Notes: generated by a model not told the origin, from the sequence alone. A DNA stretch of 64,000 nt from an uncultured Elusimicrobia bacterium (GCA_964508565.1 CAZDUB010000001.1:181726-245725); one strand, 5' to 3'. Positions 19,533 to 53,142 are shown, counted from the first letter of the stretch. Numbers and translations: made by a program.

Positions 19533-19555
19533 ACTTCCAATGCGGGTTTGGAAGT
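19533..19555. repeat. Hairpin ACTTCCAA-TGCGGGT-TTGGAAGT between convergent genes
   Basis: Perfect 8-bp stem, 7-nt loop. Sits between the stop at 19532 and the reverse gyrase stop at 19555-19557. Confidence 0.8.
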
Positions 19556-24878: not shown

Positions 24879-25775
24879 CTACAAAATTTTACTTAATCTT
24901 TCTTTAAGCTTACAAAAGGAACATACTTGAGAAACTGTAGGTTCTCCGCAAATAGTACAAGCCATAAATTTTGGTTTTTCTTCTTTAAGATGAGGTTGAA
25001 GTTTTCTTAAAAAATCTAAATAAAACCTCAATTTAGTCCCTGGGCTTTTTTCTTCAATCAGCGATAGAATTTTTTTATAATGAATAGAAGTAGCATTTTT
25101 AGAAAATGGACATTCTTCTTCAATATAATTTATATCTGAAAAAAGAGCATAGATAGCATTTTCTTTTTCAGTAAACTTAAGAAGTGGTTTTACCTTTCGT
25201 ACAAAACCCTCTCCTTCAGAAAGAACAGGTTTTTGTCTTATAAGATATTCTATATTCCAGTTAAGAATATTCAAAAGCAAAGTAGTACTTTCATCATCTA
25301 AATTATGGCCAGTAGCTACTACATTATAACCATTTTGTTTAGCAAAACTATTCATATAATACCTTTTAATCTGGCCACAAAATGAACATGTAGGTCTTTT
25401 TTCTAATTCATCTATTTTAGGAATACTTGCTAAATACTGGGAGATATCTATAATGTAGAGTTTTAGAGATCTTTTTTTAGCAAATTCTTCACAGACAACT
25501 CTAGATTTTTCAGAATAATCACCTATGCCAAGATATATATGAAATCCAGCAACTTCATAACCAAGTTTATAAAGCGCATCCAACAAAGATAAACTATCCT
25601 TTCCCCCAGAAACAGCTACTAAAATTTTATCTTCTTTTTTAAACATCTTAAACTCATCTATTGTATGTTGAAGTCTTCTAAGATACCACTCAATATAGTG
25701 TTCTTTACAGAAAGCTATTCTATATTGTGGAAGATAAACTAATGCTTTAGTTTCACACTTATAACATTTTTTCAT
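24879..25775 (-). CDS. ttuA: tRNA 2-thiolation ATPase, TtuA/NcsA family (PP-loop)
   Basis: N-terminal CYKC...FCKEH zinc finger, PP-loop VAVSGGKDS, C-terminal CTICGE...CSFC finger. Confidence 0.8.
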   Translation of the reverse strand: MKKCYKCETKALVYLPQYRIAFCKEHYIEWYLRRLQHTIDEFKMFKKEDKILVAVSGGKDSLSLLDALYKLGYEVAGFHIYLGIGDYSEKSRVVCEEFAKKRSLKLYIIDISQYLASIPKIDELEKRPTCSFCGQIKRYYMNSFAKQNGYNVVATGHNLDDESTTLLLNILNWNIEYLIRQKPVLSEGEGFVRKVKPLLKFTEKENAIYALFSDINYIEEECPFSKNATSIHYKKILSLIEEKSPGTKLRFYLDFLRKLQPHLKEEKPKFMACTICGEPTVSQVCSFCKLKERLSKIL

Positions 25776-25786: not shown

Positions 25787-25990
25787 TTATCCTCCAGACA
25801 AAGCATTTATCAATCTTAACTCTTCTTTATCTTTTATAATATCTGTATCTTGAAGAACTTCCTCACCCCGGATTAAGAAAGCATATTCTGTTGAAAGTCC
25901 TAAGGCTTTTATTATATCTATAGCTCTAACTTTATCAGTAGAAAATTCTAATTCTTTTATTTGCCCCCTATAGTAGATTTTTACTCTCAT
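25787..25990 (-). CDS. ThiS/MoaD-like sulfur carrier ending in GG (TtuB-like)
   Basis: MRVKIYYRG...LINALSGG* has a ubiquitin-like size and a C-terminal Gly-Gly. It sits 11 nt upstream of ttuA. The GTG-extended ORF to 26053 is less likely. Confidence 0.7.
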   Translation of the reverse strand: MRVKIYYRGQIKELEFSTDKVRAIDIIKALGLSTEYAFLIRGEEVLQDTDIIKDKEELRLINALSGG

Positions 25991-26172
25991 AGTTTTACTT
26001 CTTATAGTTAAACAAATCAACTTTTCCAGCTTTAGAAATGTTATTTTTACCACTTTGGAGTAAATATTACTACAACGATTAATTACGAAGAATAATAAGT
26101 AAAAAACAAAACGGGAAGATAAATAATATACTTTCCTTTTTTATCACATCCTTTTTATCAACTCAACATACA

Positions 26173-26264: not shown

Positions 26265-29200
26265 TTATTCAATGTCACCTTCTATATCTAGTACGATATT
26301 TTGCAGCTGTCTCAATTTCTCCTTTTCTACTTTCCAGTAGCCTCTCTTCTCTGATTCTATTAGAAGTTCACATATTTTTACAGCAGCGTAAGGATTATTT
26401 TGCTGAATTTTTTTTCTCATTTCTTCATCAAAAATTAGCTTATTGGCAACTTCATCAAATATCCAGTTTTCAACTTTCCCAGTTGTAGCAGCAAAAGCTA
26501 GAAGATATTCCACCCTATCCTTTATTTTCTTTGCACCGTGGAAATCGTGCTTTAACATCCCCTCTATCCAGCGAGGATTGAGGATTCTTGTTCTAGTAGC
26601 TCTCTCAATAGATATTTTCAAATCTTCCACTACTATATCTTCTTCAGTTGAATCTATAACCAAAATTTCTGCTTTATCACCTTTCTTATCCTGAACGGTT
26701 CTTGATAAACCGCCTAAAAATTCATAGTAATGGTCTAAGTCTGTAACTTCATACTCTGTGTTATCCCTTTCCTGGGTTACAATATCAATAGATTTAAGCA
26801 CATTAAAGAATGCTTGTTCATTTTTCTCTACTCTCCCTTTGAAATACGCATAGCTCATGCTATCGTCGTAGCTTTTGACTAAATCCTTCTCATCTTTCCA
26901 TGCACTACTTTCAATTAATGTTCTCATTGATGTTGTGTATTCTGTTGGTGATGGACCAAATATTCTCGCGAGAGCAAAATCTTTTAGTTCACTCTTTGAT
27001 TGTAAAAAATGTTTTTTTATGTAATTATTTTCAGGTGGTTCATCGAGATTAGCAACCATCGCTACTGCTCTATTAATCAAATCAATAAGTGTTGGAAGAG
27101 TATCTCTAAATATTCCGCAAATTGTGATTACAACATCTATCCTTGGTCTATTCAGTTCTTCTAATGATATGACTTCAAGCTCCTTAAACCAAGGACTTTT
27201 TTTATGTTTTATCCTTACTCCGAGTAGAGAAAGAATAGTAGCAATAGTATCTCCACCAGTTTTCATTGTTTCAAATCCCCACAAAACAATTCCTACGCTT
27301 TCAGGATATTTCCAGTACTTTTTCAGATAGGATTCAATTAAGAGTTCTGCGGCTTTTTTTCCTCTCATTTCTGCTGCAATTGTTGGTATCAACCTCGGGT
27401 CAAACGCATACATTGCTCTTCCAGATGGGTATACTTCGGGGTCACGAATAGGATCACCGCCGCGTGCTGGAAAAATATATCTTCCTTCCAAAGCACGTAA
27501 AAGCATCTCACTTTCTGAAGAATTATAAACATTTTCTACAATATTTCTTACGAAATCAACGTATCCTTTGGGAAGCCATTTAGGTGATTTATCATGAAGT
27601 ATTTCCTTAATTACTTCCTTCGCCTGGCTCTCTATTTCATCCGCTATATTTGATTCCCTTACTTTATCCCAATCAAGTGCTTTTTGTTTTGCAATTAACT
27701 TCAGGATAGATGGGAACTCTCTCTCAATTCGTAACACACCAAGAAGATAATCAATCATTTCTTCTTCTGTAAACTTTCTGTTCATTATATGTAATCCATA
27801 GGGGATAAGTCTTCTTTTCATCTTGTACAGTTCTTTTCTTAATTCCAAAGGTTCTTGAGGTAAATGCAGGTCATTTGCGGTTTCCTTAATAACTTCTAAA
27901 GTTTTTTCGTCTTTATTTTCATCGTATTGATTGAGCAAATCTTCTAAAATGATATATTTTTCATAAAGACCTGAGGTCTTCATGGGTGGGGATGCGTGAG
28001 AGATGCAAATTGCATAAGAGCGTCTTTTGGCAATCGTTGATTCTGAAGGATTCCCAATCCAATAGTAATATATGTGAGGCATATTCCCAATTAGTATATC
28101 AGGGAAACATTCCGATGAAAGAGCAACTTCTTTGCCTCTAGTAAACTCAACTGTGCCATGCATACCAAAGTGTATTACTGCATTTGCACGAAACTCTTTT
28201 TCTAAAAAGAAATAGTATGCAAGATACTGGTGATGTGGTGGCAAGTCTTTATCGTGATAGGCTTTATCAGGATCTTCATGTACACCCCTTGATGGTTGAA
28301 TACCTAAAAATACATTTCCTAAAATTACACCGGGAATTAAAATATTGTTGCCATCAACCATTACTTTTCCTGGCGGTTTCCCCCAATGTTTTATTACATC
28401 CTCCTGTACAGATACTGGAAGCGATTTAAACCACGAGATGTATTTCTCAGCAGTTATCCTCAAGCCTGATTTATGAAGATAGTTTGGACTATTCACTATT
28501 CCTAAAGAGAGAAAGAGTTCTTTTAAGGTGGTGTTTGGAATCTCTACATTATATCCCTTCTCATTTAGCTTATTTAGAAATATCTTTAAACTTTCAAAAA
28601 CATCAAGATAGCCAGCACTTGCTAAGTTATCCTCTCCAGGTGGATAGTTATAAGTAAGGATTGCAACGCGTTTTTCATTATTGGGTGTATTTCTTAAAGT
28701 GAGCCAGTTTTTCACTCTTGTCGCTAGCTTTTTTACTCTATCTTCTAACACTTTTGGTCTTTTTATTTTTCCCATGGTGGGGTCATTGAAACTTTCTAAT
28801 CCTGATATGAAAACAGGCTCTATACCACCATCAAGTTCAGGCAAACTTATACCTATTACAATCTCTAATGGATCTAATCCTTGTTTACTTTTTTTCCATT
28901 TTTCTATCTCGGTTGAATATGATCTGAGCCCTATCATCAACGGGATGTCTACTTTCTGCAAGAATTGATAAGTTGGTTCCGGCTCTCCACCATAAGGTCC
29001 TCCATGAATTCTGAAGTATTGAAGGTTAATTAAAAGGTCTATATCAGTTAGATACTTGTTGATTGCTTCAATATTGTGTTCTACTTTGGAGACAACAAAA
29101 ATCAAATTAACATCATCTTTCAGATACTTAAAAAGTGCATCTGCTATTACTCTACATTCACCGAAATGTATTCCACCGTATAGTAAGGCACCAACTGTTG

Positions 29201-29861
29201 GCTTTTTAGGGTTATATGGAAGCATCTTTTTGTATTCTTCAATGTGCTTAAGCAAGCCTTTTGCTGGCAGATAAAGACCATAATCAAAAATTTTTGGTGG
29301 TGAAATTTTTCTTATACTTTTAACTCTGCCATACTCTTTAAGCAATAGGAGGATAAGATTCTTCAGATTTTCTGTATCTCCTTCGCTATAATACTGTATT
29401 GCCAGAACCCAGTTCCGCATATCTTTTAACATTCCAAAAGGTATGATTTTCCCAAGTTTTTTTGCCAGCTCAGAAAATTTCTTTGTTTTGATATAAGTAT
29501 GAACATTAAATTCTTTTTCTTCACCTTTAAAGATCACCTCTCCGTTAAATTTGTCCATCTTTATTAATTTCCAGATATGTTGACCACCTGCAACTAAAAC
29601 AACTATGGTTTTTTCTTTTCCTTCAAGCATACGGGGAAGTTCTCGCCCTATTCTAACATCTCCTCTTATATCCACCAGTATGATGTCTGAAGAATCTATT
29701 TCTTTTTCAAGGGGAGTCATGGGAACATCTGCATTTTCATATTCATCAAAATATACTTTTTTGATTTCAACAATATTACCATACTCGTTTCTTATTTTTT
29801 CGGCAGCTTCTTTTAAAGCCACTGTATCATTTATCGTAGTTAAAGCTAAAATTTTTTTCAT
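26265..29861 (-). CDS. CobN/Mg-chelatase large-subunit family protein
   Basis: 1198 aa. The region [18 protein letters not shown] and the overall length are typical of CobN/BchH-type chelatases. 4-nt overlap with the upstream ChlI/ChlD gene. Confidence 0.85.
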
Positions 29862-31648
29862 ATGATTTCCTCAAGATAAAAATGTGGTGCGTTAAACGCT
29901 TTAGCAATATCTTCAAGCAATCCAATACTTCTGTTCTTGCTTTCGGCATTTACTATCACAAGGTTTATGTTCTCACCAAAAGATAAAAGAAATCTTATAT
30001 CTTCTTCAATACTATTTTTGATATAAACATTACCTCTACCATCAGAAATTAAAATAACAGTGGGAATTACATTGGTTTCTTTTTTGGCAATTTCAAATGC
30101 CTTATAAAGTGCAGGTGTGAGCGGTGTTTTACCTCCTGTGGGAAGATTTTCCAATGCATTCTCAATTTTGGTGACATCCGAGGTAGGTGGTACTAAAACC
30201 TCAGCATCATGATCTCTAAATGTTACCAAAGCAACTGAATTTTTCTTTTCATAAGTTCGCTTAAGCAGAATCCATGCAAGAGTTTTAGCAAACTTAATCT
30301 TTTTCTCCATCCTCATTGAGGATGAAGAATCAAGTAAGATTATGTAAAGTGCCTTACCTTTAGTAATTCTCACTTTTTCCATAAGATGTTCTGGTAGAAC
30401 TTCCAATTTCCCAGTTTCTCTAACTGCTTTTCTTAAAGTAGCATCAACTGCTATACTTGTTGGATTTTCGCTCTCCCTTGCTTTGATATATAAACCTCTC
30501 TCACCATTTGTTCTTGGGAAATCTTTTCCGTGTAGAGATGTGTTTGCATCAAGCTTCAATATATCTTTTTTTTTTACCTCGGCATTTTCCTCAAAGTCAG
30601 ATACTTCGTCTCTCGTTTTCCCATGCAAAATTGCTTCTAACATCTCTTTTCGGAGAGGTGTGCTGTTTTCAAAAGGTTTCTGACGTATTCTATGCGAAAG
30701 CGCTAATATAGCAGCTTCTTTTATGTCATCTTCTGTTACATAATCTCTTCCACTTAGTGCGGCGAGTGCCCTTACAGTTTTCTCCATTACAATATCAGCA
30801 CGGTGCGTTTTAATACCTAATGATGTTGTTATTTCTACAATACTTTCAAGTATTTCGTTTGAAATCTTCACTTTAGAAAGAGCTGCTTGTGCATTAATTA
30901 TACGCTTTCGCAACTTTTCTTGTTCTTCTTTGAACTGTTCTTCAAATTTCCACGGATCGGTATCAAACACTCTCCGATATTTCACTATTTTGATTCTATC
31001 TTCTTTCGAAGACAATGCGTTTACTTCTACACACAAACCAAACCTATCCAGTAATTGTGGTCTAAGATTGCCTTCTTCCGGATTCATTGTCCCCACCAAG
31101 ATAAAACGCGCTGGATGGTACAAAGATATGCCTTCCCTTTCTACAATATTGACACCCATAGCAGCAGAATCTAAAAGGATATTGACAAGATGGTCGTCAA
31201 GCAAATTTACTTCATCAATATAGAGTATGTTTCTATTAGCTCTTGCTAATATGCCAGGTTCTAATGCTTTTATACCTTCTTTAAGTGCTCTTTTGATATC
31301 AATTGTTCCAACGACCATATCTTCTGTAGCAGATAGAGGCATATCTACAATTTCCATTTTTCTTTCTATATATGGTAACTGTCCTTCCCGCTCGTATCGT
31401 TCTTGACAGGACTTACACATTAATCTCAAATCTTCGGGATGACAGTTAAATGGACAGCCTTCCACAACTTTTATTTTAGGAAGTAAATCTGCTAAAGCAC
31501 GCACAGCGGTAGATTTTCCAGTCCCTTTGTCTCCATTTATTAACACTCCACCAATAGTTGGATCTATTGCGTTGACAATTAAAGCTTTTTTCATCAACTC
31601 CTGTCCTACAATTGCTGTAAACGGAAATACTACAAATTTATGGTGCAT
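29858..31648 (-). CDS. ChlI-ChlD fusion (AAA+ ATPase + vWA/MIDAS) chelatase subunit
   Basis: Walker [10 protein letters not shown]; Cys-rich insert [17 protein letters not shown]; Walker [11 protein letters not shown]-terminal vWA domain with MIDAS motif LLDSSSSM. Confidence 0.85.
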
Positions 31649-31671
31649 ATTGTTTTCTCCTTTTATAAAAT

Positions 31672-31830
31672 TTATGCAAGACGATGAGTAAAAAGAAAAT
31701 TTTCATTCTCAAGAATTTTAGAAGCACCAAAATATGATAATTCGCTACTATTAAAAATAGATATTTTGTTGCCAAGTGTCTAGCAAGCGCTATATCGTGT
31801 ATTGAAATTATTTTCGTTTGTAGTAAATTT
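31672..31830 (-). pseudogene. C-terminal remnant of an ABC-transporter ATPase
   Basis: Minus-strand translation IISIHDIALARH / [34 protein letters not shown], with a 1-nt frame change. It matches the HDLNLA...G.p.evl tail of ABC ATPases. No N-terminal part remains. Confidence 0.55.
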
Positions 31831-31894
31831 TAACAAACTTATATCTCCGTCCAAAAGCTAAAGTAGATACCTAACAATTTTTATAAAAAACTTT

Positions 31895-32494
31895 TTATTT
31901 CTTAGTAACACAAAAGTAAATTTTATTATTTTCAATAAAATTTATCTCTGAAAATTTTGCTTTTTTAGACAACAATACAAGTTCTTTATCTGTGGGTATA
32001 AAATCTTTTGCTACAAGACCTTCAAGTTTCTTATGGTGAGAATTAATTTCTTCTCTATTTTTTGAGTGTGCAATTATAAAATAACCATCTTTTTTAAGAA
32101 CGCGATATACTTCTTTTAATGCTTTTAACTTATTAACAAAATGTGGAAATGTGTTAAAGCAAACTACTCCATCAAATTTTTCGTTTTCAAAAGGCATATT
32201 GTGAGCATTTGCTTTCACATATACAAACCTATCAGCAAATTTTTCTTTTGCTTTGTTTAACATCTTTTGTGAAAAATCTAAAGCATAAACTTTACCTTTT
32301 TTACCTACAAGTTTTTCTAAATACGGCAATAAAATTCCTGTACCACAACCTAAATCTAAAATATTATCTCCTTTTTTAAAAAATTGTTTTAACAAAGGAA
32401 AAATTTTTTGTTCTATTTTTTTTATAGTTTGTTTTATTTTTGGTGAACTATCCCAATTTTCTGCAAGTTTATCAAAAAATTGTTTTCTGTTCAT
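31895..32494 (-). CDS. Class I SAM-dependent methyltransferase
   Basis: ILDLGCGTGILL motif I, 199 aa. 4-nt overlap with the upstream permease gene. Confidence 0.8.
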   Translation of the reverse strand: MNRKQFFDKLAENWDSSPKIKQTIKKIEQKIFPLLKQFFKKGDNILDLGCGTGILLPYLEKLVGKKGKVYALDFSQKMLNKAKEKFADRFVYVKANAHNMPFENEKFDGVVCFNTFPHFVNKLKALKEVYRVLKKDGYFIIAHSKNREEINSHHKKLEGLVAKDFIPTDKELVLLSKKAKFSEINFIENNKIYFCVTKK

Positions 32495-33279
32495 AGTTTT
32501 TTAGGTGATAGTAAAACACAGAAAATAAAAATTATATTTGAAATTACAATTGTAGTTGCTGCTATTGGTAAATTTAAAAAGTATGAAGTTAAAAGTCCTA
32601 CTAATGAAGACAATACTGCAAAAACTACAGAAACAACATACATTTTATTTAAATCGTATGTTAACTGATATGAAGACAACCCTGGCAGCGTAATCAAACC
32701 AAATATTAAAAGTCCTCCAATGTAATTAAGAGTTACTGCAACAGTTATTCCGCAAAGAAATATTAAACTTAAAAATATGAACTTTTCATATATACCAACT
32801 GATTTTGCAATCTCTCTATTAAACAACACTGCGAGAATTTCTTTATAAAACAAAATAGTAAAAAGAACTATAATAAACAAAACTATTGCTAAAAACAACA
32901 CAGAATTCCATGAGACATTAAGAATATTTCCCCATATATAACTTAAAACTTCTGCTTTAGAACCTTTAATTAAACCTGCTAAAATAAACGCTATTCCTAA
33001 AACAAATGAAAAAATTACACTTGTAGAGATGTTTACAGAAAATTCTGCTCTTTCTGCAATGGGACCTAGAAGAATTGAAGCTATTAAACAAAAAATTACT
33101 GAAGAAAACAACGGATTGATATTACTTAGAACTCCAAATATAGCTCCTGCAAAAGCAGCATGTGACATAGTTACACTTATAAAAGGGATATTTAACAAAA
33201 CAACCCACACACTCACAATGCCACAAACTATCCCAGTTAAAATTGATGTTAAAAAAATTTTTATAAAAAACTGTGACAT
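32491..33279 (-). CDS. Metal ABC transporter permease (ABC-3/ZnuB-like)
   Basis: 262 aa polytopic protein with the size and hydrophobic pattern of the ABC-3 family. Adjacent to the ATPase and binding protein. Confidence 0.75.
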   Translation of the reverse strand: MSQFFIKIFLTSILTGIVCGIVSVWVVLLNIPFISVTMSHAAFAGAIFGVLSNINPLFSSVIFCLIASILLGPIAERAEFSVNISTSVIFSFVLGIAFILAGLIKGSKAEVLSYIWGNILNVSWNSVLFLAIVLFIIVLFTILFYKEILAVLFNREIAKSVGIYEKFIFLSLIFLCGITVAVTLNYIGGLLIFGLITLPGLSSYQLTYDLNKMYVVSVVFAVLSSLVGLLTSYFLNLPIAATTIVISNIIFIFCVLLSPKKL

Positions 33280-33280
33280 T

Positions 33281-34066
33281 TTATGGATGTAAACTTCCTA
33301 TATGGAAGTGCCTTTTATTGTTTATTAATTCAATTTGTACAGAACATTCATAAAGTAAAGACAGTGTCTCCTCTTTTAAAACTTCATTAGGCTCACCAAC
33401 AGAAACAACTTCACCATTTTTTAAAAGCACAACTTTGTTGCAACAATCTGGTATGTGGCTTAAAATATGTGTAACGAAAATTGTGGTGATATGTTTTCGT
33501 AAGTAAATGTTTTTAATTAATTGAAGTAGTTCAAACTGAGATTTTGGGTCAAGGTTAGATGTGGGTTCATCTAAAAGCAAAATTTTAGGTTGTTGTACAA
33601 GTGCTCTTGCAATAGAAACTTTTTGATATTCACCACCTGAGATATGTCCAACAGGTTTTTTTAATAAGTGTTTTATTTTTAGCAAAGTTATAACTTCTTC
33701 AATAATTTCTTTGTCCTTTAAGGAAAGTTTCTTAAAAAGTCCAATTTTTCCATATCGTCCAATGCTAATAACATCTTCTACTAAAATTGGCAAATTAGCA
33801 TCTATGTTATACTGTTGTGGGACATATCCTATATCCTTTCTTATCTTAACAACATTTTTTGAATTTAATTTTTCAGTAAAAACATAAATCTCACCTTTAG
33901 AAACTCTTGTTAACCCGTTAATTGTTCTCAACAAAGTTGTCTTTCCTGAACCATTAGGCCCTATTACTGAAACAAAAGAGTTTTCTTCTATATCCAAACT
34001 TATATTATTTAGGGCACTCTTATGTTTATAAAAAACTGAAACATTTTTTATTTCAACTATTTTCAC
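33281..34066 (-). CDS. Metal ABC transporter ATP-binding protein (ZnuC-like)
   Basis: Walker A GPNGSGKTT, signature ISGGEYQK, Walker B LLLDEPTSNLD. Confidence 0.88.
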   Translation of the reverse strand: MKIVEIKNVSVFYKHKSALNNISLDIEENSFVSVIGPNGSGKTTLLRTINGLTRVSKGEIYVFTEKLNSKNVVKIRKDIGYVPQQYNIDANLPILVEDVISIGRYGKIGLFKKLSLKDKEIIEEVITLLKIKHLLKKPVGHISGGEYQKVSIARALVQQPKILLLDEPTSNLDPKSQFELLQLIKNIYLRKHITTIFVTHILSHIPDCCNKVVLLKNGEVVSVGEPNEVLKEETLSLLYECSVQIELINNKRHFHIGSLHP

Positions 34067-34830
34067 TTTAATGCCTTTTTAATTTTTGAAATGTTTTTAA
34101 GTAGTGTTTCTATGTAACTGCCTTCTACGAAATTTGTTAAAACAATGTGTTTTGCATTTAATTCTTTTGCAAGTTGCCTACCAATATTTGGACCGCTTTG
34201 TAGATTATCCACAACAAGATTGATATTTTCTTTTATGTTCAAAACATTTGCAATATCTTTTAAACTGATTTGTTCTTGTCTTGGGTAGGAATAAACCACA
34301 CTAAATCCTAACCATTCAAGAAACTCTTTTTGATGTTCAGAACAGATAACTTTTATATCTTTATATTTCTGAAAATCTTTTTTTATTCGTTGTTCAATTT
34401 TCTTTATTTTTTCAGAATACTTGTCATAATTATTTTTATAAACTTCTTTATTTTGGGGGTCAATCTCTGACAATATTTCCAAAATCTTTTCTGCAACAGC
34501 AAGATTTATTTGTGGTATCATAAAATTTCCTTCAATAGGAATTTTGTAACTTTTTGTCTCTTTCATTAAATTTTTTATCCACTGTTCCCAACCATGATAG
34601 AAAAATATATCAGAATTAAGGATTTTTTGTGCATCTTTTGGTGACAAATCAAAATGCCCTGGGCACATATCTGAAGGAACTATCTCTAAAACTTCTGCTT
34701 TATCTTGCGCTATTTCTTTTACAATAGAAGCAATATTTGTAGTAGTAGCAACAATATTTAACTTTTTTGCGTAGGAATAAACAGAAACACAAAAAATTAG
34801 AAATAACACATATAAAATCTTTCTTTTCAT
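34063..34830 (-). CDS. Periplasmic metal-binding protein (TroA/ZnuA-like, short form)
   Basis: Signal peptide and LNIVATTTNIASIVKEI. Unusual Cys-His site SDMCPGHFD where ZnuA-type proteins carry DPH. Confidence 0.65.
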   Translation of the reverse strand: MKRKILYVLFLIFCVSVYSYAKKLNIVATTTNIASIVKEIAQDKAEVLEIVPSDMCPGHFDLSPKDAQKILNSDIFFYHGWEQWIKNLMKETKSYKIPIEGNFMIPQINLAVAEKILEILSEIDPQNKEVYKNNYDKYSEKIKKIEQRIKKDFQKYKDIKVICSEHQKEFLEWLGFSVVYSYPRQEQISLKDIANVLNIKENINLVVDNLQSGPNIGRQLAKELNAKHIVLTNFVEGSYIETLLKNISKIKKALK

Positions 34831-34875
34831 CCAACGCAGGCTTGGAAATTTGGAAAGTTCGTTGTAATTATTTCT

Positions 34876-36666
34876 TTAAAACAAATAATTAACTCCTAAC
34901 CCAAACGTTCTTTTAGGCATTGTATAAACATCGGAAGCGCCAGGTACTTCTGTATAAATTTTGTATTCCGCATCCGTTATATTATCAATTGTAGCATAAA
35001 TACTTAAGTTTTTTATTATTTCGTAGTTAAGTTTTAAATTTAAAACATTATAATCATCAAGTTTTGTTTTTGTTGTCCCTTGTAGATAATAATATTCATT
35101 CACATACTCATCAGTTAACAACCCACTTATTTTTCCTTTTTTGAAATTAATCATTGCGACTAACTTATTTTTTGGTTGAGCAATCACTTTGTCTTTAGTA
35201 TCAAGATAACTATAGCTTAGCGAACTTCCTAAACCTTCAATAACTTTAAGATTAAATAGTACTTCGAAACCGTTAAAATCAAAATCACCTATGTTTTGTT
35301 TTTTGCCAGAAACTACTTGAATTAAATCTTTACCTTTCATATTAAACGCTGTTAAGTCAATATTCATAAAATTGAAAATTTTTTGTCTAACTCCAAATTC
35401 TATATTTGTAACTCTTTCTGGTTTTAATTCTGGATTCGCAGATGCGTATAAAAATAAATCGTTTAAATGAGGTGGTCTAAATCCTTGGCTATAAAGCGCT
35501 CTTAAGGTTATAGTATTAAACAACTTATAAACCAAACCAAACCTTGGAGTTACTGCTTCTTTTGCGTATTCGTCATAATTGTATCTTACTCCAGCATTAA
35601 CTGTAAGTCTGCTAAAAAATGTGTGAGCATCATCTATATAAACTCCATATTCATATTTTGTATAATCCTTGTTTAAAAAAGCTGCTGGAGCCCCTGATAA
35701 AACTTTTCCCCAAAAATATCTATAGTCAACTCCGTAACTTAAAATGTTGTTTTCTAAAAGGTTAGAGTTACCATTTATCACTACACCATTAGTATAATCT
35801 TGTGAATGCCATCCGTCAGAAAATTTATGTTCACCAAATGTTCTATAAATCTTTGTTGTAAGATTTGCAAAACCTAAATTTGTCTTTAAGTTTAAATCAG
35901 TAGAACCTCGTTTATAATCATTCCAAGTACCTGAAGCAGCAGGAAATGGTTCGTATTTTATACCATCAAAATATTTCCCACTAAATGATAACTCAAAATT
36001 TTTACTAAACATATATCCAATATTCCCACCAAAATCTGTGGCTTTGTACTGAGAACTTTCAGTGTGTCCGTCAGAATATCTTCTGTCAACACTAAATAAC
36101 CAGTTTAATCTGCCTAAGTCTCGCCCTATTTGAAACTTACTAATTTGTGTATTAAATGACCCTCCATACAAATTCAAACTTCCTTCCAAATCTTTTTTTG
36201 CTTTTTTAGTAATAATATTTACAACACCGCCAAACGCTTCTGAACCATAAATTACTGATTCTGGACCACGAATAACTTCTATTCTTTCAACATTATTCAA
36301 TGGCAAAGTATGTGTTACAGAACAGCCCATAAGCGCCATTTTATCTGGTCTGCCATCTATAAAAATACCAAGTTGTCTTCCATTGTTGCCAATACCACGA
36401 ATGTTTACATCTGCTCTACCAAAGGCAGATGTCCTTGTAACAAAAATTCCAGGAAGCAAATTAAGAATGTCTGTTGTCTGATATACATTTGTTAACTCAA
36501 TATCATCTTTTGTTACCACTGAAACAGACAATGAAGAGTTTTCTGTTGGTTGTTCATACTTTTTTGCTGTGACAGAGATTCTCTCAGCAGAAAGATACAC
36601 CTCTTGTTGTGCATAACAAAAAACTGCTAAAGATATTAAGATATTAAAATATATTTGTTTCTTCAT
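34876..36666 (-). CDS. TonB-dependent outer-membrane receptor (small, 596 aa)
   Basis: Signal peptide; plug motifs (IEVIRGPESVIYGSEAFGGVVNIITK); beta-barrel ending in a C-terminal F (GVNYLF). Confidence 0.88.
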   Translation of the reverse strand: MKKQIYFNILISLAVFCYAQQEVYLSAERISVTAKKYEQPTENSSLSVSVVTKDDIELTNVYQTTDILNLLPGIFVTRTSAFGRADVNIRGIGNNGRQLGIFIDGRPDKMALMGCSVTHTLPLNNVERIEVIRGPESVIYGSEAFGGVVNIITKKAKKDLEGSLNLYGGSFNTQISKFQIGRDLGRLNWLFSVDRRYSDGHTESSQYKATDFGGNIGYMFSKNFELSFSGKYFDGIKYEPFPAASGTWNDYKRGSTDLNLKTNLGFANLTTKIYRTFGEHKFSDGWHSQDYTNGVVINGNSNLLENNILSYGVDYRYFWGKVLSGAPAAFLNKDYTKYEYGVYIDDAHTFFSRLTVNAGVRYNYDEYAKEAVTPRFGLVYKLFNTITLRALYSQGFRPPHLNDLFLYASANPELKPERVTNIEFGVRQKIFNFMNIDLTAFNMKGKDLIQVVSGKKQNIGDFDFNGFEVLFNLKVIEGLGSSLSYSYLDTKDKVIAQPKNKLVAMINFKKGKISGLLTDEYVNEYYYLQGTTKTKLDDYNVLNLKLNYEIIKNLSIYATIDNITDAEYKIYTEVPGASDVYTMPKRTFGLGVNYLF

Positions 36667-36789
36667 TTTTATCCTCCTTTAGTTGTTAAAAATAGTTGTT
36701 TAAGGAGTAGTTTATAAAAATTGTTACCTCCTTTCTCAATTTATGGTTTAGTTCATCTTTTGTACTACTTTTATAAAATTCGTGTTACT

Positions 36790-36887
36790 AAAAATTTACT
36801 CATTTAGTTACCTCGTTGTTTAGTCGTCTTTGTGATTTTTTAAACCACCACACAACCAGACAACTAAACAACCAAATGACTATACAA
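36790..36887. repeat. Repeat module D copy (AACCAGACAACTAAACAACCAAA)
   Basis: 36840-36885 matches 53085-53125 and, reversed, 60958-61005. Confidence 0.7.
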
Positions 36888-37298
36888 TTAAACAACCGAG
36901 GTAAAACTTAAAGCAGTGTGGTTAACTCCTTTTGCTGATTTCAATTTATCAGCAAGTGCTTGAATTTTTTTTGAATTACCACGAGTTATAATTACTTCTA
37001 AACAGTTGTCATGGTCTAAATGAATATGTTGAGATGCAACAATAATATCTTGATAGTCGTGTTGAATATCTACAATTTTGTCTACAAGTTCTCTTTTGTG
37101 ATGGTTGTAAACAATAGATATAACACCTGCACACTCTTTGTTTAAAACCCAATTTTCTTTTACAAATTCAGCACGAATTAAATCTCTTATTGCTTCTGAA
37201 CGGTTTTTATAATTTTTTTCTCTTATGTAATTATCAAATTTTAAAAGCAATCCTTCTGGAATTGCAACGCCAAACCTTTTAAGTTTTTCTTTTTTCAT
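36888..37298 (-). CDS. nikR: Nickel-responsive regulator NikR
   Basis: Ribbon-helix-helix N-terminus RFGVAIPEGLL..FD.....NYKNRSEAIRDLIR. C-terminal metal site HIHLDHDNC. Confidence 0.88.
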   Translation of the reverse strand: MKKEKLKRFGVAIPEGLLLKFDNYIREKNYKNRSEAIRDLIRAEFVKENWVLNKECAGVISIVYNHHKRELVDKIVDIQHDYQDIIVASQHIHLDHDNCLEVIITRGNSKKIQALADKLKSAKGVNHTALSFTSVV

Positions 37299-37338
37299 AG
37301 TAGCACTTATTTTAAAAAAGTAGCAAAAAATTTATAAG

Positions 37339-37378
37339 TTGTCAACACTTGACAAAAAAATAATTATTAAATAAATAA
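37339..37378. promoter_or_regulatory. Palindrome TTGTCAACACTTGACAA carrying back-to-back -35 boxes (divergent promoter/operator candidate)
   Basis: Perfect 7-3-7 inverted repeat at 37339-37355. TTGACA reads on both strands (37349-37354 plus; 37345-37340 minus). An A/T-rich -10 candidate TAAATA lies at 37372-37377. Confidence 0.5.
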
Positions 37379-37388: not shown

Positions 37389-37673
37389 ATGAAAAAGAGC
37401 CTTCGGTTATTTATTCTTACATCATTTGTTTTAATACTTTTTAGCAGTTTTTTCCACTTTCATAGCGATATTTCTGAATTACAAAACCAAGATAATTGTT
37501 TAATATGTTTTTATATTGGACAAATTTCTAATAGTATTCTATTTTTTAATTTAGTTTTTTTGCTTGTTTTATTTTTAGTTTGTTTTGTGTATATAAATAT
37601 AGAAAACATTTCTTATATATATTTCATTTCAAAACTTCAAATCCGTGCTCCTCCTTTAAAACTCATCGGATAA
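37389..37673 (+). CDS. Small membrane/secreted protein resembling DUF2946
   Basis: Signal anchor, HFH, CLIC pair and a C-terminal RAPP motif. I recall these features from DUF2946 proteins encoded beside metal-uptake receptors. Confidence 0.45.
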   Translation: MKKSLRLFILTSFVLILFSSFFHFHSDISELQNQDNCLICFYIGQISNSILFFNLVFLLVLFLVCFVYINIENISYIYFISKLQIRAPPLKLIG

Positions 37674-37730
37674 ATCCAACTATTTAAAAACTCACGAGTT
37701 TTTTATTTAACCTAACTAAGGGGGGGTAAA

Positions 37731-38807
37731 ATGAAGAGTTTAAATAATTTATTAGTTTTCCTTTTAACAATTTTGAGTTTTACTTCAATATCTTTTTCAA
37801 CAACGCCACTTCCTGGTATGCGTGGAACACCTAATAATCTGCCCGATATTTCTGTAATTGGTGATTTCTACAGTGCTTTTTCAAAAGATTATTCAGAGAT
37901 TGTTACAGTGCGTTCTATAGAAACAGCATTTCAAGGATATATATATCCTGAGGTACGCTCTGATATCTTTCTTGCTTTACACAGGCACGAAGAAGCTTTA
38001 GAATTTGAACTTTGTGAAGGTTATGTTAGTTTTTTAAAACTGTTTGGGAAGCTTTCTGCTGAAGTTGGCAGACGACATGTAGAATTTGGCAAAGTCAACA
38101 AAATACACCAGCATCACAGACCTTATTTTGACCAACCAATTGTTATAACTAATTACTTAGGAGAGCATGGATTAGTTGGAGACGGATTAAATTTAAAATA
38201 TCTTTTACCACTTAACTTTTTTGCAGAGGTTTCTTTTGGAGGGTGGGAAGTTCCTAAAGCGCATACTCATCAACAAGAAACAGAAGAAACACATCAACAT
38301 TCAAACTTTATAAATGATAGAGTTTATACTTCAAAAATATGGTTTGGGTTTCCTTTAGCTAAAGTTTCTGAATTAGAGCTGGGATTTAATTATTTATTAG
38401 GAAAAGGGCCACATTATATAGAACACAAAGATGAAATAAGTATATTTTCTGCAGAAGTTAACTATAAATGGATATTTTCTACTTACAGAAATTTAACTTT
38501 ACAATCAGAACTTTTCTGGCTAACTCGTAGTGTTCCTGTAGAAACATTCAAAAGGTTTGGTGGTTATTTATTTACAAACTTGCAGTTATCAAAATATTGG
38601 TCTTTGGCAGCAAGATATGATTATGTAGAATTACCTAATCCTGAAGAGATTAACATAACACAAGCGCTTTCACTTATTGTTACCAAAAACTTAACAGAGA
38701 CCACTCTAATAAGAGGACAATATACTTATGACATCACTGAATCTGAACACAAAGGAGTTGTTCAGTTTGTTTTTGGTATAGGTCCACATAGCCATATGTT
38801 AGAATAA
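37731..38807 (+). CDS. Putative outer-membrane beta-barrel protein with His-rich loops
   Basis: Signal peptide, alternating beta-strand pattern. His clusters KIHQHHRP, KAHTHQQETEETHQH and GPHSHM. Confidence 0.5.
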   Translation: MKSLNNLLVFLLTILSFTSISFSTTPLPGMRGTPNNLPDISVIGDFYSAFSKDYSEIVTVRSIETAFQGYIYPEVRSDIFLALHRHEEALEFELCEGYVSFLKLFGKLSAEVGRRHVEFGKVNKIHQHHRPYFDQPIVITNYLGEHGLVGDGLNLKYLLPLNFFAEVSFGGWEVPKAHTHQQETEETHQHSNFINDRVYTSKIWFGFPLAKVSELELGFNYLLGKGPHYIEHKDEISIFSAEVNYKWIFSTYRNLTLQSELFWLTRSVPVETFKRFGGYLFTNLQLSKYWSLAARYDYVELPNPEEINITQALSLIVTKNLTETTLIRGQYTYDITESEHKGVVQFVFGIGPHSHMLE

Positions 38808-38824
38808 AACTTAACGGAGGTTTT

Positions 38825-39748
38825 ATGAGTTTTATGAAAAGAACTCTATTTATTTTAATTTTAAAAATTTTAATAATACAAAGCTTTTTATTCGCACAAA
38901 AAAAACTTTTTGTGGTAACCACTACTCAAGACCTTGCTGATTTAGCTAAAAATGTTGGTAAAGATAAAATAGAAGTTGTAAGCTTAACTTACGGTTGGCA
39001 GGACCCTCATAGAATAGAACTTCGTCCTTCTATGGTTTCTACTTTAGCAAAAGCAGATTTGGTTATAAAAATTGGTATGGATCTTGATAGTTGGGTTGAT
39101 AGTTTAATTTTTGCGTCAAGAAATTCAAAGATCGCCTATGGACAGAAAGGGTATTTAGATGTGTCTTCAAGGATAAAAAAATTAGAAGTGCCTGAAGGCA
39201 AAGTTGATGCTTCAATGGGAGATATACATATTTATGGCAATCCTCATTATTGGTTGTCACCAACTAATGCGAAGATTATCGTAGAAGATATTGCTGAAAG
39301 GTTAGCAGAATTATCTGAAGAAAACAAAACATTTTTTGAAGAAAATGCAAAACAGTATGTTAAAGAACTTGATAAAAAAATAAACGAGTGGACACAAAAA
39401 GTTGCCAATATAGAAAACAAGAAAGTTGTATCTTACCATAAGACTTTTGCATATTTCTACAACGAATTTGGTTTTAAAGAGATAGCTACAGTTGAACCAA
39501 AACCTGGGATACCACCAACACCAAAATATCTAAATAGTCTCATAGAAAAAATAAATCAAGAAAAACCTTTATGTATCCTACATGAAAGTTTTTATCCATT
39601 AAAAAACACAAAATTTCTCTCACAGAAAACAAATATTCCATATGTTGTAGTTTCAACTTCCGTTGGTGGAGAAAAAGGAATAGAAGACTATATAACTTTA
39701 ATAGATACTATTATTAACAAGATTTGTTCAGTAGCGCAAACAAAATAA
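38825..39748 (+). CDS. Metal ABC transporter substrate-binding protein (ZnuA/TroA family)
   Basis: Signal peptide; DPHRIELRP and GNPHYWLSP His-ligand motifs. Confidence 0.85.
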   Translation: MSFMKRTLFILILKILIIQSFLFAQKKLFVVTTTQDLADLAKNVGKDKIEVVSLTYGWQDPHRIELRPSMVSTLAKADLVIKIGMDLDSWVDSLIFASRNSKIAYGQKGYLDVSSRIKKLEVPEGKVDASMGDIHIYGNPHYWLSPTNAKIIVEDIAERLAELSEENKTFFEENAKQYVKELDKKINEWTQKVANIENKKVVSYHKTFAYFYNEFGFKEIATVEPKPGIPPTPKYLNSLIEKINQEKPLCILHESFYPLKNTKFLSQKTNIPYVVVSTSVGGEKGIEDYITLIDTIINKICSVAQTK

Positions 39749-39753
39749 ACATT

Positions 39754-40473
39754 ATGAAAAAAGATATCATTATTGAATTAAAAAATGTTTCTTGCGGTTA
39801 TAAAAAGAACATTGTACTTAAAGATGTGAACCTAACTATTGGAAGTGACGAATGCATCGGTATAATTGGACCAAATGGTGCCGGAAAAACGACTTTAGTA
39901 AAAACTATAATTGGCAATCTAAAACCAATCAAGGGAGAAATTATTAAATACAAGGATATAAAATTTGGTTATGTGCCTCAGCTATTTAGTATAGATGAAA
40001 CCTTCCCACTTACTGTTGAAGATGTGTTAAACTTTTCACTTCAAAATAAAATAAAACAAACCTCTACTCAGTGGAATGAAATTTTGGACACTACTGGTAT
40101 TAACCCAAAATATCTCTACCGCGACCTTTCCGGAGGACAGAAACAAAAAGTGCTTATACTGCGAGCTTTACTTTTACAACCTGATGTTTTAGTTTTGGAT
40201 GAACCTTTTAACGACTTAGATTTTTATAATGTAACAAATCTATTAAATTTTCTAAATGAGTTAAGAAAAAACTATAGATTTACAATTTTAATTATATCTC
40301 ACAGTTTAAATATTATTCTCAACTTTGTGCAGAAAATTTTTGTAATAAACAACTCTAAAGTTTCTGTAGTTGAGTCAACAAAGGATAAAAACAACTTAGA
40401 AGAAGTTTTAAACTCAACTTTTAACATCAAAACAAAACTTTATCAGATTGAGGACAAAATAATACTGATATGA
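39754..40473 (+). CDS. Metal ABC transporter ATP-binding protein (ZnuC-like)
   Basis: GPNGAGKTT, LSGGQKQK, LVLDEPFNDLD. Start taken at MKKDIIIELKNV. Confidence 0.88.
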   Translation: MKKDIIIELKNVSCGYKKNIVLKDVNLTIGSDECIGIIGPNGAGKTTLVKTIIGNLKPIKGEIIKYKDIKFGYVPQLFSIDETFPLTVEDVLNFSLQNKIKQTSTQWNEILDTTGINPKYLYRDLSGGQKQKVLILRALLLQPDVLVLDEPFNDLDFYNVTNLLNFLNELRKNYRFTILIISHSLNIILNFVQKIFVINNSKVSVVESTKDKNNLEEVLNSTFNIKTKLYQIEDKIILI

Positions 40474-41279
40474 AAACTATTTTAATACAGCCCTTCATAA
40501 TTTTGGCAGGAATTGCAACTACAATAGCATCTTTAGGGCTTTCTGTTTTTAGTCCAGTTGTTGTTTTTAAAAGAGATATTTTTGTGCCATTAGCAATTGC
40601 AGAAACTGCTTTATGTGGAGTTATAATAGGAACCGTAGTTGGTATCAATTTTTATCTTACTGCGATAGTATTCTCTCTTATTACAATTTTACTTTTATTT
40701 TCTATTAAAACCAACAAATCTCTACCACAAGAGACAGTTATTGCTATAGTGTATGTATTTGCGTCTGCATTAAGTATAATAGCTTTATCAAAGTCACCAG
40801 TTTTACACTCTCAAGCTACCGATGTCCTTTTTGGTAATGTACTTACTGTAGGGCAATATGAAACTTGGTTTTCGCTTATAACAACACTAATTTCACTAAC
40901 TACTTTGTTTTTACTCTACGGCAAGTTTGTGTTTGCTTTTAGTGACATTGAAACAGCCAAAAGTTGTGGATTAAATGTTGGGCTTTTAAATTTCATTTTT
41001 TATTCAATTTTAAGTTTAATTATAACCGCTAGTATAAAAATATTAGGATTACTTCTAACTTTTAGTTATTTGCTTTTACCAACTACGGTTGCTTCTTTAG
41101 TTAGTTGTCGTTCATTAAAGAGTACAACTCTGTTTGGTGTTATAAGTTCACTTATATCTACATGGATAGGATTTATACTTTCAGTTTATCTTGATACTCC
41201 TACAGGCCCAACTATAGTCATAACCTTTTTGTTGGTAATTAGCGTTATTTACTTTATTAAGAAAATTTTTAAACTTTGA
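40470..41279 (+). CDS. Metal ABC transporter permease (ZnuB-like)
   Basis: 269 aa polytopic ABC-3-type permease. ATGA overlap with the ATPase gene. Confidence 0.8.
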   Translation: MKTILIQPFIILAGIATTIASLGLSVFSPVVVFKRDIFVPLAIAETALCGVIIGTVVGINFYLTAIVFSLITILLLFSIKTNKSLPQETVIAIVYVFASALSIIALSKSPVLHSQATDVLFGNVLTVGQYETWFSLITTLISLTTLFLLYGKFVFAFSDIETAKSCGLNVGLLNFIFYSILSLIITASIKILGLLLTFSYLLLPTTVASLVSCRSLKSTTLFGVISSLISTWIGFILSVYLDTPTGPTIVITFLLVISVIYFIKKIFKL

Positions 41280-53130: not shown

Positions 53131-53142
53131 AGGTAAGGTTTT

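Follow-up and report, generated by a model that had tools for sequence, protein, structure and literature searches.

Two separately conserved nickel-regulated modules lie side by side in the window, the whole 64 kb stretch of DNA that was analysed. Module A (31895-37326) holds nikR, a TonB-dependent receptor, a ZnuABC-like importer and a methyltransferase, while Module B (26265-31648) pairs a fused ChlI-ChlD AAA+/vWA protein with a 1198-aa subunit of the CobN/ChlH family. With some reserve, we lean to the view that the region is a nickel-starvation locus whose two modules belong to the NikR regulon independently of each other. Gene identities were assigned by Pfam and NCBIfam profile searches, riboswitches were searched for with Rfam, and the ORF scan took in about 50 ORFs of the window. 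The host is a thermophile, and reverse gyrase is present. The preliminary description had eight genes running along the minus strand from 37298 to 26265, an arrangement confirmed by ORF calls and profile assignments, together with 4-nt overlaps at the binding protein/ATPase, permease/methyltransferase and chlID/cobN boundaries. The features are as follows.

37300..37326, no strand assigned: NikR-box-like operator, GTAGCAC-N13-GTAGCAA, abutting the nikR start codon
36888..37298, minus strand: nikR, nickel-responsive ribbon-helix-helix repressor (NF003381, PF08753 NikR_C)
36805..36883, minus strand: strong stem-loop just 3' of the nikR stop codon (predicted fold energy)
36762..36788, no strand assigned: NikR-box operator of the receptor operon (exact pattern match)
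34876..36666, minus strand: TonB-dependent outer-membrane receptor with Plug, beta-barrel and signal peptide (PF07715, PF00593)
34063..34830, minus strand: short periplasmic binding protein of the ZnuA/TroA type, whose metal site is a variant (PF01297)
33281..34066, minus strand: ABC transporter ATPase (PF00005)
32491..33279, minus strand: ABC-3 (ZnuB-type) permease (PF00950)
31895..32494, minus strand: class I SAM methyltransferase (Methyltransf_11), its start overlapping the permease stop (PF08241)
31649..31894, minus strand: non-coding junction of Modules A and B (ORF, blastx, H-loop pattern, operator and fold scans)
29858..31648, minus strand: ChlI-ChlD hybrid (TIGR02442, AAA_lid_2, Mg_chelatase, VWA_2)
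26265..29861, minus strand: CobN/ChlH-superfamily large chelatase subunit, 1198 aa, of an archaeal-type clade (PF02514, TIGR02025)

The nickel regulation proposed in the preliminary description is supported by the regulator and by its operators. With NF003381 the repressor reaches 168 bits (cut-off 105); it also matches PF08753 NikR_C and keeps all four nickel ligands, the spacing H-x10-H-x-H-x5-C of E. coli NikR being readable in QHDYQDIIVASQHIHLDHDNC. The NikR signal is GTGTTAC-N13/14-GTAACAC (PMC545781), a comparative-genomics prediction and not a footprint, and the pattern used here, GTRNYAC-N13-GTRNYAC, fits both this signal and its reversed form. At no more than one mismatch, the pattern has only two matches in the 64 kb, where 0.45 are expected, one before nikR and the other before the receptor. 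The nikR operator lies downstream of a TTGACA -35 hexamer and therefore probably mediates autoregulation; an equivalent site was found upstream of nikR in L087-L089 and L093, which are among the related loci described below. The receptor operator reads GTAACAC-GAATTTTATAAAA-GTAGTAC on the coding strand and is located 95 nt upstream of the receptor ATG. The stem-loop behind nikR (-30.7 kcal/mol, z = -6.0, with 0/200 shuffles folding as well) carries no U-tract; it probably marks where the nikR transcript stops, or else acts as an insulator. Control of Module A by NikR is regarded as highly likely.

The Module A cassette was seen at seven other loci (L087-L093) from several phyla, including the window's own lineage, Elusimicrobiota and WOR-3. 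A NikR box precedes the receptor in 7/7 of these cassettes and nikR is adjacent in four, and chelatase genes were found in none of the seven. The methyltransferase is the conserved last gene, with the same position and overlap in L087-L091 and L093, and belongs to the importer cassette, which it accompanies at loci without the chelatase. The receptor reached no NCBIfam equivalog and the methyltransferase no NCBIfam cut-off, while the binding protein scores 111 bits against a cut-off of 29 for PF01297. It contains SDMCPGHFD, of which MCPGHFD is invariant in its subfamily. When 22 members of this subfamily were aligned with the canonical ZnuA that the window also encodes, and in a separate alignment with PsaA, the canonical His/His/His(Glu)/Asp metal ligands of ZnuA/TroA cluster A-I proved to be missing: the first ligand region reads CPGH, the NPH loop, which bears the second His, is deleted, and the last ligand region reads LTNF. 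The cassette has its regulator and operator class in common with NikABCDE and NikMNQO, but differs from them in its TonB receptor and ZnuABC-family system, its Cys-Pro-Gly-His binding protein and its obligatory methyltransferase. No description of this combination was found in the literature searched.

Module B falls within the class I (ATP-dependent) chelatase superfamily, as it combines a large subunit carrying histidine motifs with an AAA+/vWA partner. In the ChlI-ChlD hybrid (596 aa), a linker joins one AAA+ domain to a vWA domain; the protein carries a Walker A motif (GDKGTGKS) and a MIDAS motif (DSSSS) and gives Pfam matches to AAA_lid_2, Mg_chelatase, AAA_5 and VWA_2. Its scores stay below the cut-offs of TIGR02442 'putative cobaltochelatase' (695 bits vs 779), BchI (454 vs 467) and BchD (375 vs 500). 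The large subunit matches PF02514 with 1065 bits over residues 156-1182 and passes TIGR02025 BchH (893 bits, cut-off 829) but not TIGR02257 CobN (673 bits, cut-off 822); its PDB matches descend from ChlH (4zhj, 582 bits) through CobN (446) to HmuS (342). Comparison with the described active-site motifs placed HFGMHG at residues 564-569 and the second motif at 1040-1051. The protein is predicted to be cytoplasmic, having neither signal peptide nor membrane anchor and an N-terminus that is not hydrophobic. The best-scoring characterised relative is thus the Mg-chelatase ChlH/BchH + ChlI + ChlD, likewise cytoplasmic and likewise made up of three functional elements, namely a large subunit that binds the substrate, an AAA+ ATPase and a vWA/MIDAS domain. 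Module B differs from it in having one hybrid in place of separate I and D subunits, in its thermophilic host, in its NikR control and in the adjacent metal importers. An assignment as chlorophyll Mg-chelatase was rejected although TIGR02025 is passed, given the single fused ChlID and the absence of bch/chl genes from the window.

Archaeal proteins share 70-75% identity with the large subunit, whose clade includes many methanogens and archaea with MCR or MCR-like enzymes (Methanobacteriaceae, Methanolliviera, Alkanophaga, Helarchaeota and WYZ-LMO2 Archaeoglobi). Proteins 70-82% identical occur in Endomicrobia, in Thermodesulfobacterium and in Clostridia and Actinomycetes genome bins. Throughout the relatives, the chlID-cobN pair is conserved with its 4-nt overlap, and nikR adjoins it at four loci (L011, L028, L044 and L061). 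Furthermore, a NikR box was found within 250 nt upstream of chlID at 10 of 43 testable related loci, or 0.83 boxes per kb vs a background of 0.042 per kb, a roughly 20-fold enrichment (Poisson P ~2e-10); further NikR sites were found at L011, L044, L061 and L082/L083. The pair always lies beside importers of metals or metal chelates, of varied types: Nik/CbiMNQO, ECF type, BtuFCD type with a TonB receptor, and NikABCDE type. NikMNQO adjoins it in L001 and in L028, where the gene order is nikR-chlID-cobN-(NikK-like DUF4198)-CbiM-CbiQ-CbiO. In M. marburgensis under nickel limitation, the CobN paralogue CobN1 rises ~300-fold and a ChlID-like protein ~6-fold (PMC12350162 supplements). CobN1 (MTBMA_c06860), a possible orthologue, resembles the large subunit in its CobN annotation, its anaerobic host and its induction together with NikR1, but it is a protein of 143 kDa vs 137 kDa here and is absent from the 120 best homologues of the large subunit. 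We consider it likely that the response to nickel starvation includes this chelatase clade, in Bacteria as well as Archaea.

The junction between the modules is a 246-nt gap (31649-31894) with no ORF, no NikR box even at 2 mismatches, no terminator-like site and no significant fold; promoter-like hexamers are present at a frequency no higher than chance. The decayed ABC-ATPase fragment that the preliminary description placed here is a plausible reading. A six-frame search of the window for the H-loop pattern gave a single match, the H-loop-like peptide IISIHDIALARHLATKYLFL at 31782-31811 in one frame of the gap, but besides the missing ORF, the best blastx matches of the gap, to CbiO/NikO-type ATPases that flank cobN in relatives, reach E values of 0.3-2.5, no better than shuffled sequence. 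Such a fragment would be what is left, frame-shifted, of the 3' end of an ATPase gene of the CbiO/NikO type. The G+C contrast of 40-50% against 18-25% described earlier was overstated: chlID has 36.2% and cobN 35.1%, the transporter genes 25-31% and the window 30.2%, while several housekeeping genes have 34-40%. Only third-position G+C is mildly raised in chlID and cobN (z = +2.0 and +2.5 vs 49 other genes). Arrival of the chelatase pair as a block is nevertheless supported, by this raised GC3, by the 70-75% identity to archaeal CobN and by three syntenic relatives (FtsH 88.6% identical) in which the same nikR-receptor-ABC-MTase cassette ends at the methyltransferase with no chlID or cobN. The pair would have been added downstream of the cassette in the window's lineage. 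As to the earlier suggestion to look for recurrence of the layout of receptor, ABC, methyltransferase, CobN and ChlID, the exact arrangement was found at no other locus among those compared.

In the proposed mechanism, Ni-NikR would bind both operators when nickel is plentiful and turn off nikR and the receptor operon, whereas scarcity of nickel would allow expression of Module A and passage of nickel across both membranes. Since the window, unlike the relatives, has no NikR operator before chlID, chlID-cobN is probably transcribed by read-through from the receptor promoter, and co-regulation in this genome rests on such read-through because the gap upstream of chlID lacks a NikR box. Module B, a putative cytoplasmic ATP-driven machine of class I chelatase type from the archaeal-type clade, would take nickel from a tetrapyrrole-like chelate, or insert it into one, during nickel acquisition. 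The role favoured here is an ATP-driven handling of chelated nickel, probably for salvage. That Module B removes nickel from the chelate is held only tentatively, and that it inserts nickel is rather doubtful. To our knowledge, all chelatases characterised so far that work with an AAA+/vWA motor are metal-inserting, and the proven dechelatase, HmuS, is a periplasm-facing protein that lacks this motor, so ATP-driven nickel removal would be without precedent. We likewise know of no nickel tetrapyrrole in non-methanogenic bacteria, and insertion would therefore be without a known product. It also counts against the favoured explanation that the importer is of the free-ion (ABC-3/ZnuA) type, which offers no obvious delivery of a chelate to the chelatase. 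Precedents exist for CobN-like proteins in receptor-linked operons under a matching metal regulator, namely HmuS with iron and Pseudomonas aeruginosa PA1921-PA1925 with Zur. The latter locus, compared by its published description, similarly combines a methyltransferase, a TonB-dependent receptor, a CobN-like protein and induction by starvation for a single metal, but its regulator is Zur (zinc) and ExbD-like partners take the place of ChlID.

Insertion could alternatively make ChlID-CobN a biosynthetic nickel chelatase, driving scarce Ni2+ into sirohydrochlorin or a related tetrapyrrole with ATP. Induced at limiting nickel, it would be a high-affinity substitute for CfbA, which serves the F430 pathway without ATP. 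Such a role was put forward by Kaster et al., 2011, and it agrees with the induction of M. marburgensis CobN1 by nickel limitation, with the many methanogens and MCR or MCR-like archaea of the clade, with ChlH/BchH as closest characterised relatives, and with a cytoplasmic protein that is paired with an AAA+/vWA motor, the characteristic feature of chelatases that insert metal. This proposal is opposed by the 70-82% identical proteins of bacteria without known F430 or MCR, the window organism included, and by neighbours that are importers and not biosynthetic genes. The preliminary description had seen no tetrapyrrole gene in the window, and indeed none was found among the about 50 ORFs scanned. 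CfbA, moreover, accounts for nickel insertion in methanogens, and a biosynthetic chelatase is thought unlikely here. The two modules could also be unrelated neighbours, chlID-cobN being driven by a promoter of its own in the 246-nt gap, not regulated by nickel, and adjacent through an accident of insertion. The gap without a NikR box, its chance-level promoter-like hexamers, the layout unique among the loci compared and the cassettes complete without a chelatase in relatives would all fit. However, both modules are NikR-linked independently in other genomes, and insertion exactly behind a NikR-controlled operon is therefore unlikely to have been functionally neutral. The modules also share a strand with no terminator-like site between them, and the pair has lost the NikR box of its relatives, which fits capture by the upstream NikR-controlled promoter; mere adjacency is judged improbable.

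A cobalt chelatase for corrinoid synthesis or re-metallation, under a NikR-type regulator that is cobalt-responsive or cross-regulating, was also considered. CobNST belongs to the same ATP-driven superfamily, proteins of the Module B type are often annotated as aerobic cobaltochelatases, many database entries name the large subunit CobN, and the best NCBIfam match of ChlID is the 'putative cobaltochelatase'; in addition, MNQO transporters of the Nik and Cbi kinds are not easily distinguished, and BtuF-like binding proteins adjoin cobN in some loci. Yet the CobN equivalog misses its cut-off whereas BchH passes its own, the nickel ligands of NikR are intact, L028 encodes the NikK-like DUF4198 protein, and the window holds no CobS/CobT, cob or cbi genes. 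The earlier observation that no B12-box-like element precedes the receptor was upheld, as Rfam gave no riboswitch of any kind in the window (the cobalamin riboswitch, RF00174, was matched neither at the gathering threshold nor at E<=5), nor does a cobalamin riboswitch occur in the TonB-receptor/cobN loci. The identity as cobaltochelatase CobN was rejected, in line with the preliminary description, which had treated this CobN as an orphan, and a cobalt role is very unlikely. The same description held that CobN-like genes beside TonB uptake genes are annotated only speculatively; this is outdated, as HmuS is a demonstrated heme dechelatase (PMC12583661), although the clade found here is itself uncharacterised. 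An HmuS-type dechelatase harvesting iron from heme would account for the common superfamily, the two shared active-site motifs (HFGxHG and DHxxEFxGG) and the TonB-dependent receptor, and HmuS (Bacteroidota, hmuYRSTUV) is likewise expressed under scarcity of the metal that it supplies. But HmuS is membrane-anchored, periplasm-facing, NADH-dependent and without an AAA+/vWA partner, whereas the large subunit has no N-terminal anchor and is paired with ChlID under NikR, not iron, in a locus lacking hmuY/T/U/V genes. HmuS, which has a Met79/His254 heme site and a Met-rich insertion of its own, is the most distant solved relative, told apart here by anchor, partners and PDB score, and HmuS identity was rejected; an iron-harvesting role is extremely unlikely.

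CobN/ChlH-like proteins are found widely among methanogens, Asgard archaea and anaerobic bacteria without synthesis of chlorophyll or of B12 by the aerobic pathway, and a 2025 structural study describes their role there as unclear. Through its conserved NikR operators and adjacent nikR genes, one clade of these chelatases, large and highly conserved, is linked to nickel starvation, which agrees with methanogen proteomics, where a CobN paralogue is among the strongest responses to nickel limitation. If true, nickel specificity of the pair would give ATP-driven chelatases a third metal, after Mg and Co, or alternatively make it the first dechelatase driven by ATP, one that recovers nickel from nickel tetrapyrroles in the environment, such as F430, or from other nickel chelates. 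The receptor/ZnuABC-like/methyltransferase cassette is a further candidate nickel importer, with an unusual soft-ligand site. Conceivably, the archaeal-type ChlID-CobN is a nickel-specific class I (de)chelatase under NikR in Bacteria and Archaea and the Module A cassette an undescribed nickel uptake system. In sulfidic habitats, the availability of nickel sets a limit to methanogenesis, to hydrogen metabolism and to CO/CO2 fixation.

Eight minus-strand genes run head to tail from 37298 to 26265, as the preliminary description had it, and profile searches bore out their identities:

nikR, minus strand: NF003381 at 168 bits (cut-off 105)
TonB-dependent receptor, minus strand: Plug domain and barrel
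periplasmic binding protein (SBP), minus strand: ZnuA family
ABC ATPase, minus strand
ABC-3 permease, minus strand
SAM methyltransferase (MTase), minus strand: Methyltransf_11, reaching none of the curated cut-offs
chlID, 596 aa, minus strand: a vWA domain and a single ChlI-like AAA+ domain; TIGR02442 at 695 bits (cut-off 779)
cobN, 1198 aa, minus strand: CobN/Mg-chelatase domain, PF02514 at 1065 bits

The several 4-nt overlaps noticed earlier are found at three joints (SBP/ATPase, permease/MTase and chlID/cobN), and larger spacers separate nikR from the receptor (221 nt) and the MTase from chlID (246 nt). Tetrapyrrole biosynthesis genes were absent from the roughly 50 window ORFs scanned, and no riboswitch was detected by Rfam at gathering or permissive thresholds, in agreement with the earlier reading that the window holds neither such a gene nor a B12-box-like element. 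The host is a thermophile, since the window encodes a reverse gyrase (19555-22902, minus strand; helicase, topoisomerase IA and reverse gyrase zinc finger). TtuA (24879-25775) and a ThiS-like carrier (25787-26053) adjoin it and fit a thermophile-type tRNA 2-thiolation. At 51047-55007 lies an apparent V/A-type ATPase cluster: a 648-aa ORF resembles subunit I, a G+C-rich one of 158 aa looks like the proteolipid, and the other ORFs are of subunit size.

The ligand pattern H-x10-H-x-H-x5-C was read in the NikR protein. Comparison of intergenic regions with those of relatives having nikR beside chlID revealed a 27-bp element, GTRNYAC-N13-GTRNYAC, which is of the class of the NikR signal predicted in delta-proteobacteria, GTGTTAC-N13/14-GTAACAC, or its reversed form (PMC545781). 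The whole 64-kb window contains two matches with at most one mismatch, with 0.45 expected, and a stem-loop lies between them:

37300-37326, putative NikR operator abutting the nikR start codon, with a TTGACA hexamer upstream of the operator
36805-36883, minus strand, stem-loop that directly follows the nikR stop codon and precedes the NikR box of the receptor
36762-36788, putative NikR operator 95 nt 5' of the receptor ATG

The stem-loop (-30.7 kcal/mol, z = -6, with none of 200 shuffles equally stable) is without a U-tract, and Rfam returned nothing for it besides chance miRNA-like matches; the fold of the receptor leader was not significant (z = -0.5). Since the hairpin comes after the nikR stop codon but ahead of the second operator, nikR probably forms a transcription unit by itself, with the receptor operon beginning at a NikR-controlled promoter. 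By analogy with established NikR behaviour at uptake operons, nickel-bound NikR would repress through these candidate operators.

Divergent from nikR, a second metal-uptake cluster occupies 37389-41279 on the plus strand in the order 94-aa membrane ORF, 358-aa His-rich secreted protein, canonical ZnuA, ZnuC and ZnuB. The nikR-proximal operator sits 62 nt 5' of the 94-aa ORF, and the intergenic region holds a perfect palindrome at 37339-37355 (TTGTCAA-GTG-TTGACAA), which puts TTGACA on both strands and fits either back-to-back divergent promoters or the operator of another regulator. The 358-aa protein, possibly of the outer membrane, has no Pfam match; its ORF and the znuABC block are kept in two related loci (L087 and L088), there away from nikR and without a NikR box.

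The homologues of the binding protein are short (250-285 aa) and make up a subfamily in which the motif MCPGHFD (with Cys56 and His59) is invariant at the site of the first His ligand of canonical ZnuA, the NPH loop with the second His ligand is deleted, and the motifs VVDNLQS and LTNF are conserved. Their genes share a cassette of receptor, variant binding protein, ATPase, ABC-3 permease and an MTase overlapping the permease, present at seven loci:

L087-L089, window's own lineage; FtsH 88.6% identical; tilS, folE and folP syntenic
L090, Elusimicrobiota locus
L091, WOR-3 locus
L092, FmdE-domain gene (10378-10794) in place of the MTase, unlike all other cassettes
L093, cassette

At four of the seven loci nikR adjoins the cassette, and at all seven a NikR box lies 5' of the receptor, that of L092 being a perfect GTGTTAC-N13-GTAACAC. 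The full receptor-ABC-MTase-CobN-ChlID layout, whose recurrence was to be checked, did not recur: chlID/cobN was found within 10 kb of the cassette in 0/7 loci, and a metagenome scan with CobN gave six loci, none with the window's layout. From the seven boxes and the chelatase-free cassettes, the cassette is predicted to belong to the NikR regulon as a self-contained and widespread unit. The MTase is assigned to the uptake cassette, not to the chelatase, because it is present in cassettes without chelatase. The regulation of the cassette and the Cys/His site suggest that it imports nickel.

Among the curated models, BchH/ChlH fits the large subunit better (TIGR02025 BchH, 893 bits, cut-off 829) than CobN does (TIGR02257, 673 bits, cut-off 822). 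The solved structures matched in the order ChlH (582 bits), CobN (446 and 422 bits) and the heme dechelatase HmuS (342 bits). Both superfamily active-site motifs are retained, and a membrane anchor is absent. Three assignments were rejected: CobN-type, on its score below cut-off and a window without CobS/CobT, cob genes or a B12 riboswitch; BchH-type, despite a score above cut-off, on the fused ChlID (454 bits against 467 for BchI, 375 against 500 for BchD) and a window without bch genes; and HmuS-type, on the weakest structural match, the missing anchor and the presence of a ChlID partner. Identity of the large subunit is 82-86% in Endomicrobia, Caldisericum and Omnitrophica, 70-75% in Archaeoglobaceae, Asgard archaea, Thermodesulfobacterium and genome bins of Clostridia and Actinomycetes, and about 60% in Methanobacteriaceae; such high identity across scattered taxa points to repeated horizontal transfer.

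The chlID-cobN pair is a conserved core across 80 genome loci, and nikR adjoins it in four (L011, L028, L044 and L061); Methanothermobacter tenebrarum is among its cultivated carriers. A NikR box occurs within 250 nt 5' of chlID in 10 of the 43 testable loci, for instance at L028 5718-5744 and L023 5294-5320; the rate is 0.83 per kb, where the background has 0.042 per kb (Poisson P ~2e-10). Among these box-bearing loci are ones from Firmicutes, Actinomycetes, Elusimicrobia, Euryarchaeota, Bathyarchaeia and Methanobacteriaceae, and further NikR-box sites are found in L011, L044, L061 and L082/L083. Judged from these sites and neighbourhoods, this one clade of orphan class I chelatases is a conserved predicted member of the NikR regulon in Bacteria and Archaea both. 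The nickel regulation first proposed from the window is supported by its NikR protein and the two operator matches.

The neighbours of chlID-cobN are almost always importers, whose type varies: in L028, Nik/CbiMNQO and a NikK-like DUF4198 protein; in methanogens, Bathyarchaeia and Dethiobacter, an ECF system between chlID and cobN, its S component without family match; a BtuF/IsdE-like binding protein and FecCD permease, behind a TonB receptor in those bacteria that have an outer membrane; and NikABCDE/Opp-like systems. A B12 riboswitch was absent from the TonB-receptor/cobN loci of relatives. The ECF insert (L014-L016, L018, L020, L021, L029 and L033) combines a fused double ATPase with a CbiQ-like T component and the S component, of 184 aa; the chelatase may work on the substrate of this transporter. 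The Dethiobacter locus L020 has three NikR-box-like sites, including 12568-12594 and 16328-16354, one of the boxes being 5' of a NikABCDE/Opp-like operon following cobN; a second cobN paralogue stands at the locus end, and this genome seems to cluster several nickel-regulated units round the chelatase. The window also encodes a DUF763 protein (10851-11945), a family which, by N-terminal similarity, belongs to a conserved cluster a few genes 5' of chlID, beside a response-regulator gene, in Methanobacteriaceae loci (L014, L015, L024 and L033).

The 246-nt gap between MTase and chlID lacks an ORF and a terminator-like site; it has no NikR box even when two mismatches are allowed, and its fold is not significant (z = -0.2). 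In one frame of the gap IISIHDIALARHLATKYLFL makes a good ABC H-loop, to which the six frames of the window offer no second match, and another frame continues it with a stretch resembling a C-terminus. In blastx the gap best matched, with scores no better than those of shuffled controls, CbiO/NikO-type ATPases flanking cobN in L028, L042, L060 and L001. The G+C contrast described earlier (40-50% against 18-25%) was too strong, although chlID (36.2%) and cobN (35.1%) do lie above the window (30.2%); transporter genes have 25-31%, and several housekeeping genes of the window also reach 34-40%. Third-position G+C is modestly high (z = +2.0 for chlID and +2.5 for cobN, against 49 other genes), a hint of foreign origin with no discontinuity. 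A sharp G+C island at chlID/cobN was ruled out, GC3 alone being mildly raised. Given the junction features, and since syntenic relatives lack the chelatase, the most parsimonious history would be that a chlID-cobN block entered behind the cassette, perhaps with the end of an ATPase gene attached, and lost its own operator. Arrival as a block had been proposed before and is supported by the syntenic relatives, the 70-75% identity of CobN to archaeal proteins and the GC3 hint. The preliminary observation was largely right; the functional coupling of importer, MTase and chelatase proposed with it is a conjecture.

When nickel is scarce, NikR would leave both operators, and the receptor and ABC system would import nickel; chlID-cobN would be expressed too, here by read-through, whereas the relatives would use a NikR-controlled promoter belonging to the pair. 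Removal of nickel from an imported chelate is the favoured, though still tentative, role for the pair. It is consistently linked to importers, chelate-type ones included, and its expression is tied to starvation; its regulatory logic matches that of HmuS with iron and of the Zur-controlled Pseudomonas aeruginosa cluster PA1921-PA1925, which also contains a methyltransferase. However, ATP-driven dechelation is without precedent, and the window's importer resembles a free-ion system. The AAA+/vWA motor and cytoplasmic location would suit the opposite direction, insertion of nickel by the chelatase, but this appears less likely: no nickel tetrapyrrole is known in bacteria carrying 70-80% identical proteins, and in methanogens CfbA already serves that step. 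The remaining probability falls to other rivals.

Under nickel limitation of M. marburgensis, its CobN paralogue CobN1 rose about 300-fold and the ChlID-like MTBMA_c09440 about 6-fold (source data, PMC12350162), while the ZnuABC-like transporter beside nikR2 gave no clear response. CobN1 (143 kDa), one of three CobN proteins of that species (CobN1/2/3; D9PVN3, D9PWA1, D9PYM3), is a possible orthologue of the window's large subunit. A 2025 HmuS study described CobN-annotated sequences of Methanobacteriota and thermophiles as unlinked to cob genes and unclear in function. No report of NikR operators on chlID-cobN was found in the searchable literature, and the literature searched offered nothing direct on a NikR-chelatase link. 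In conclusion, the main result lies outside the window, in the predicted NikR link of one clade of orphan class I chelatases.
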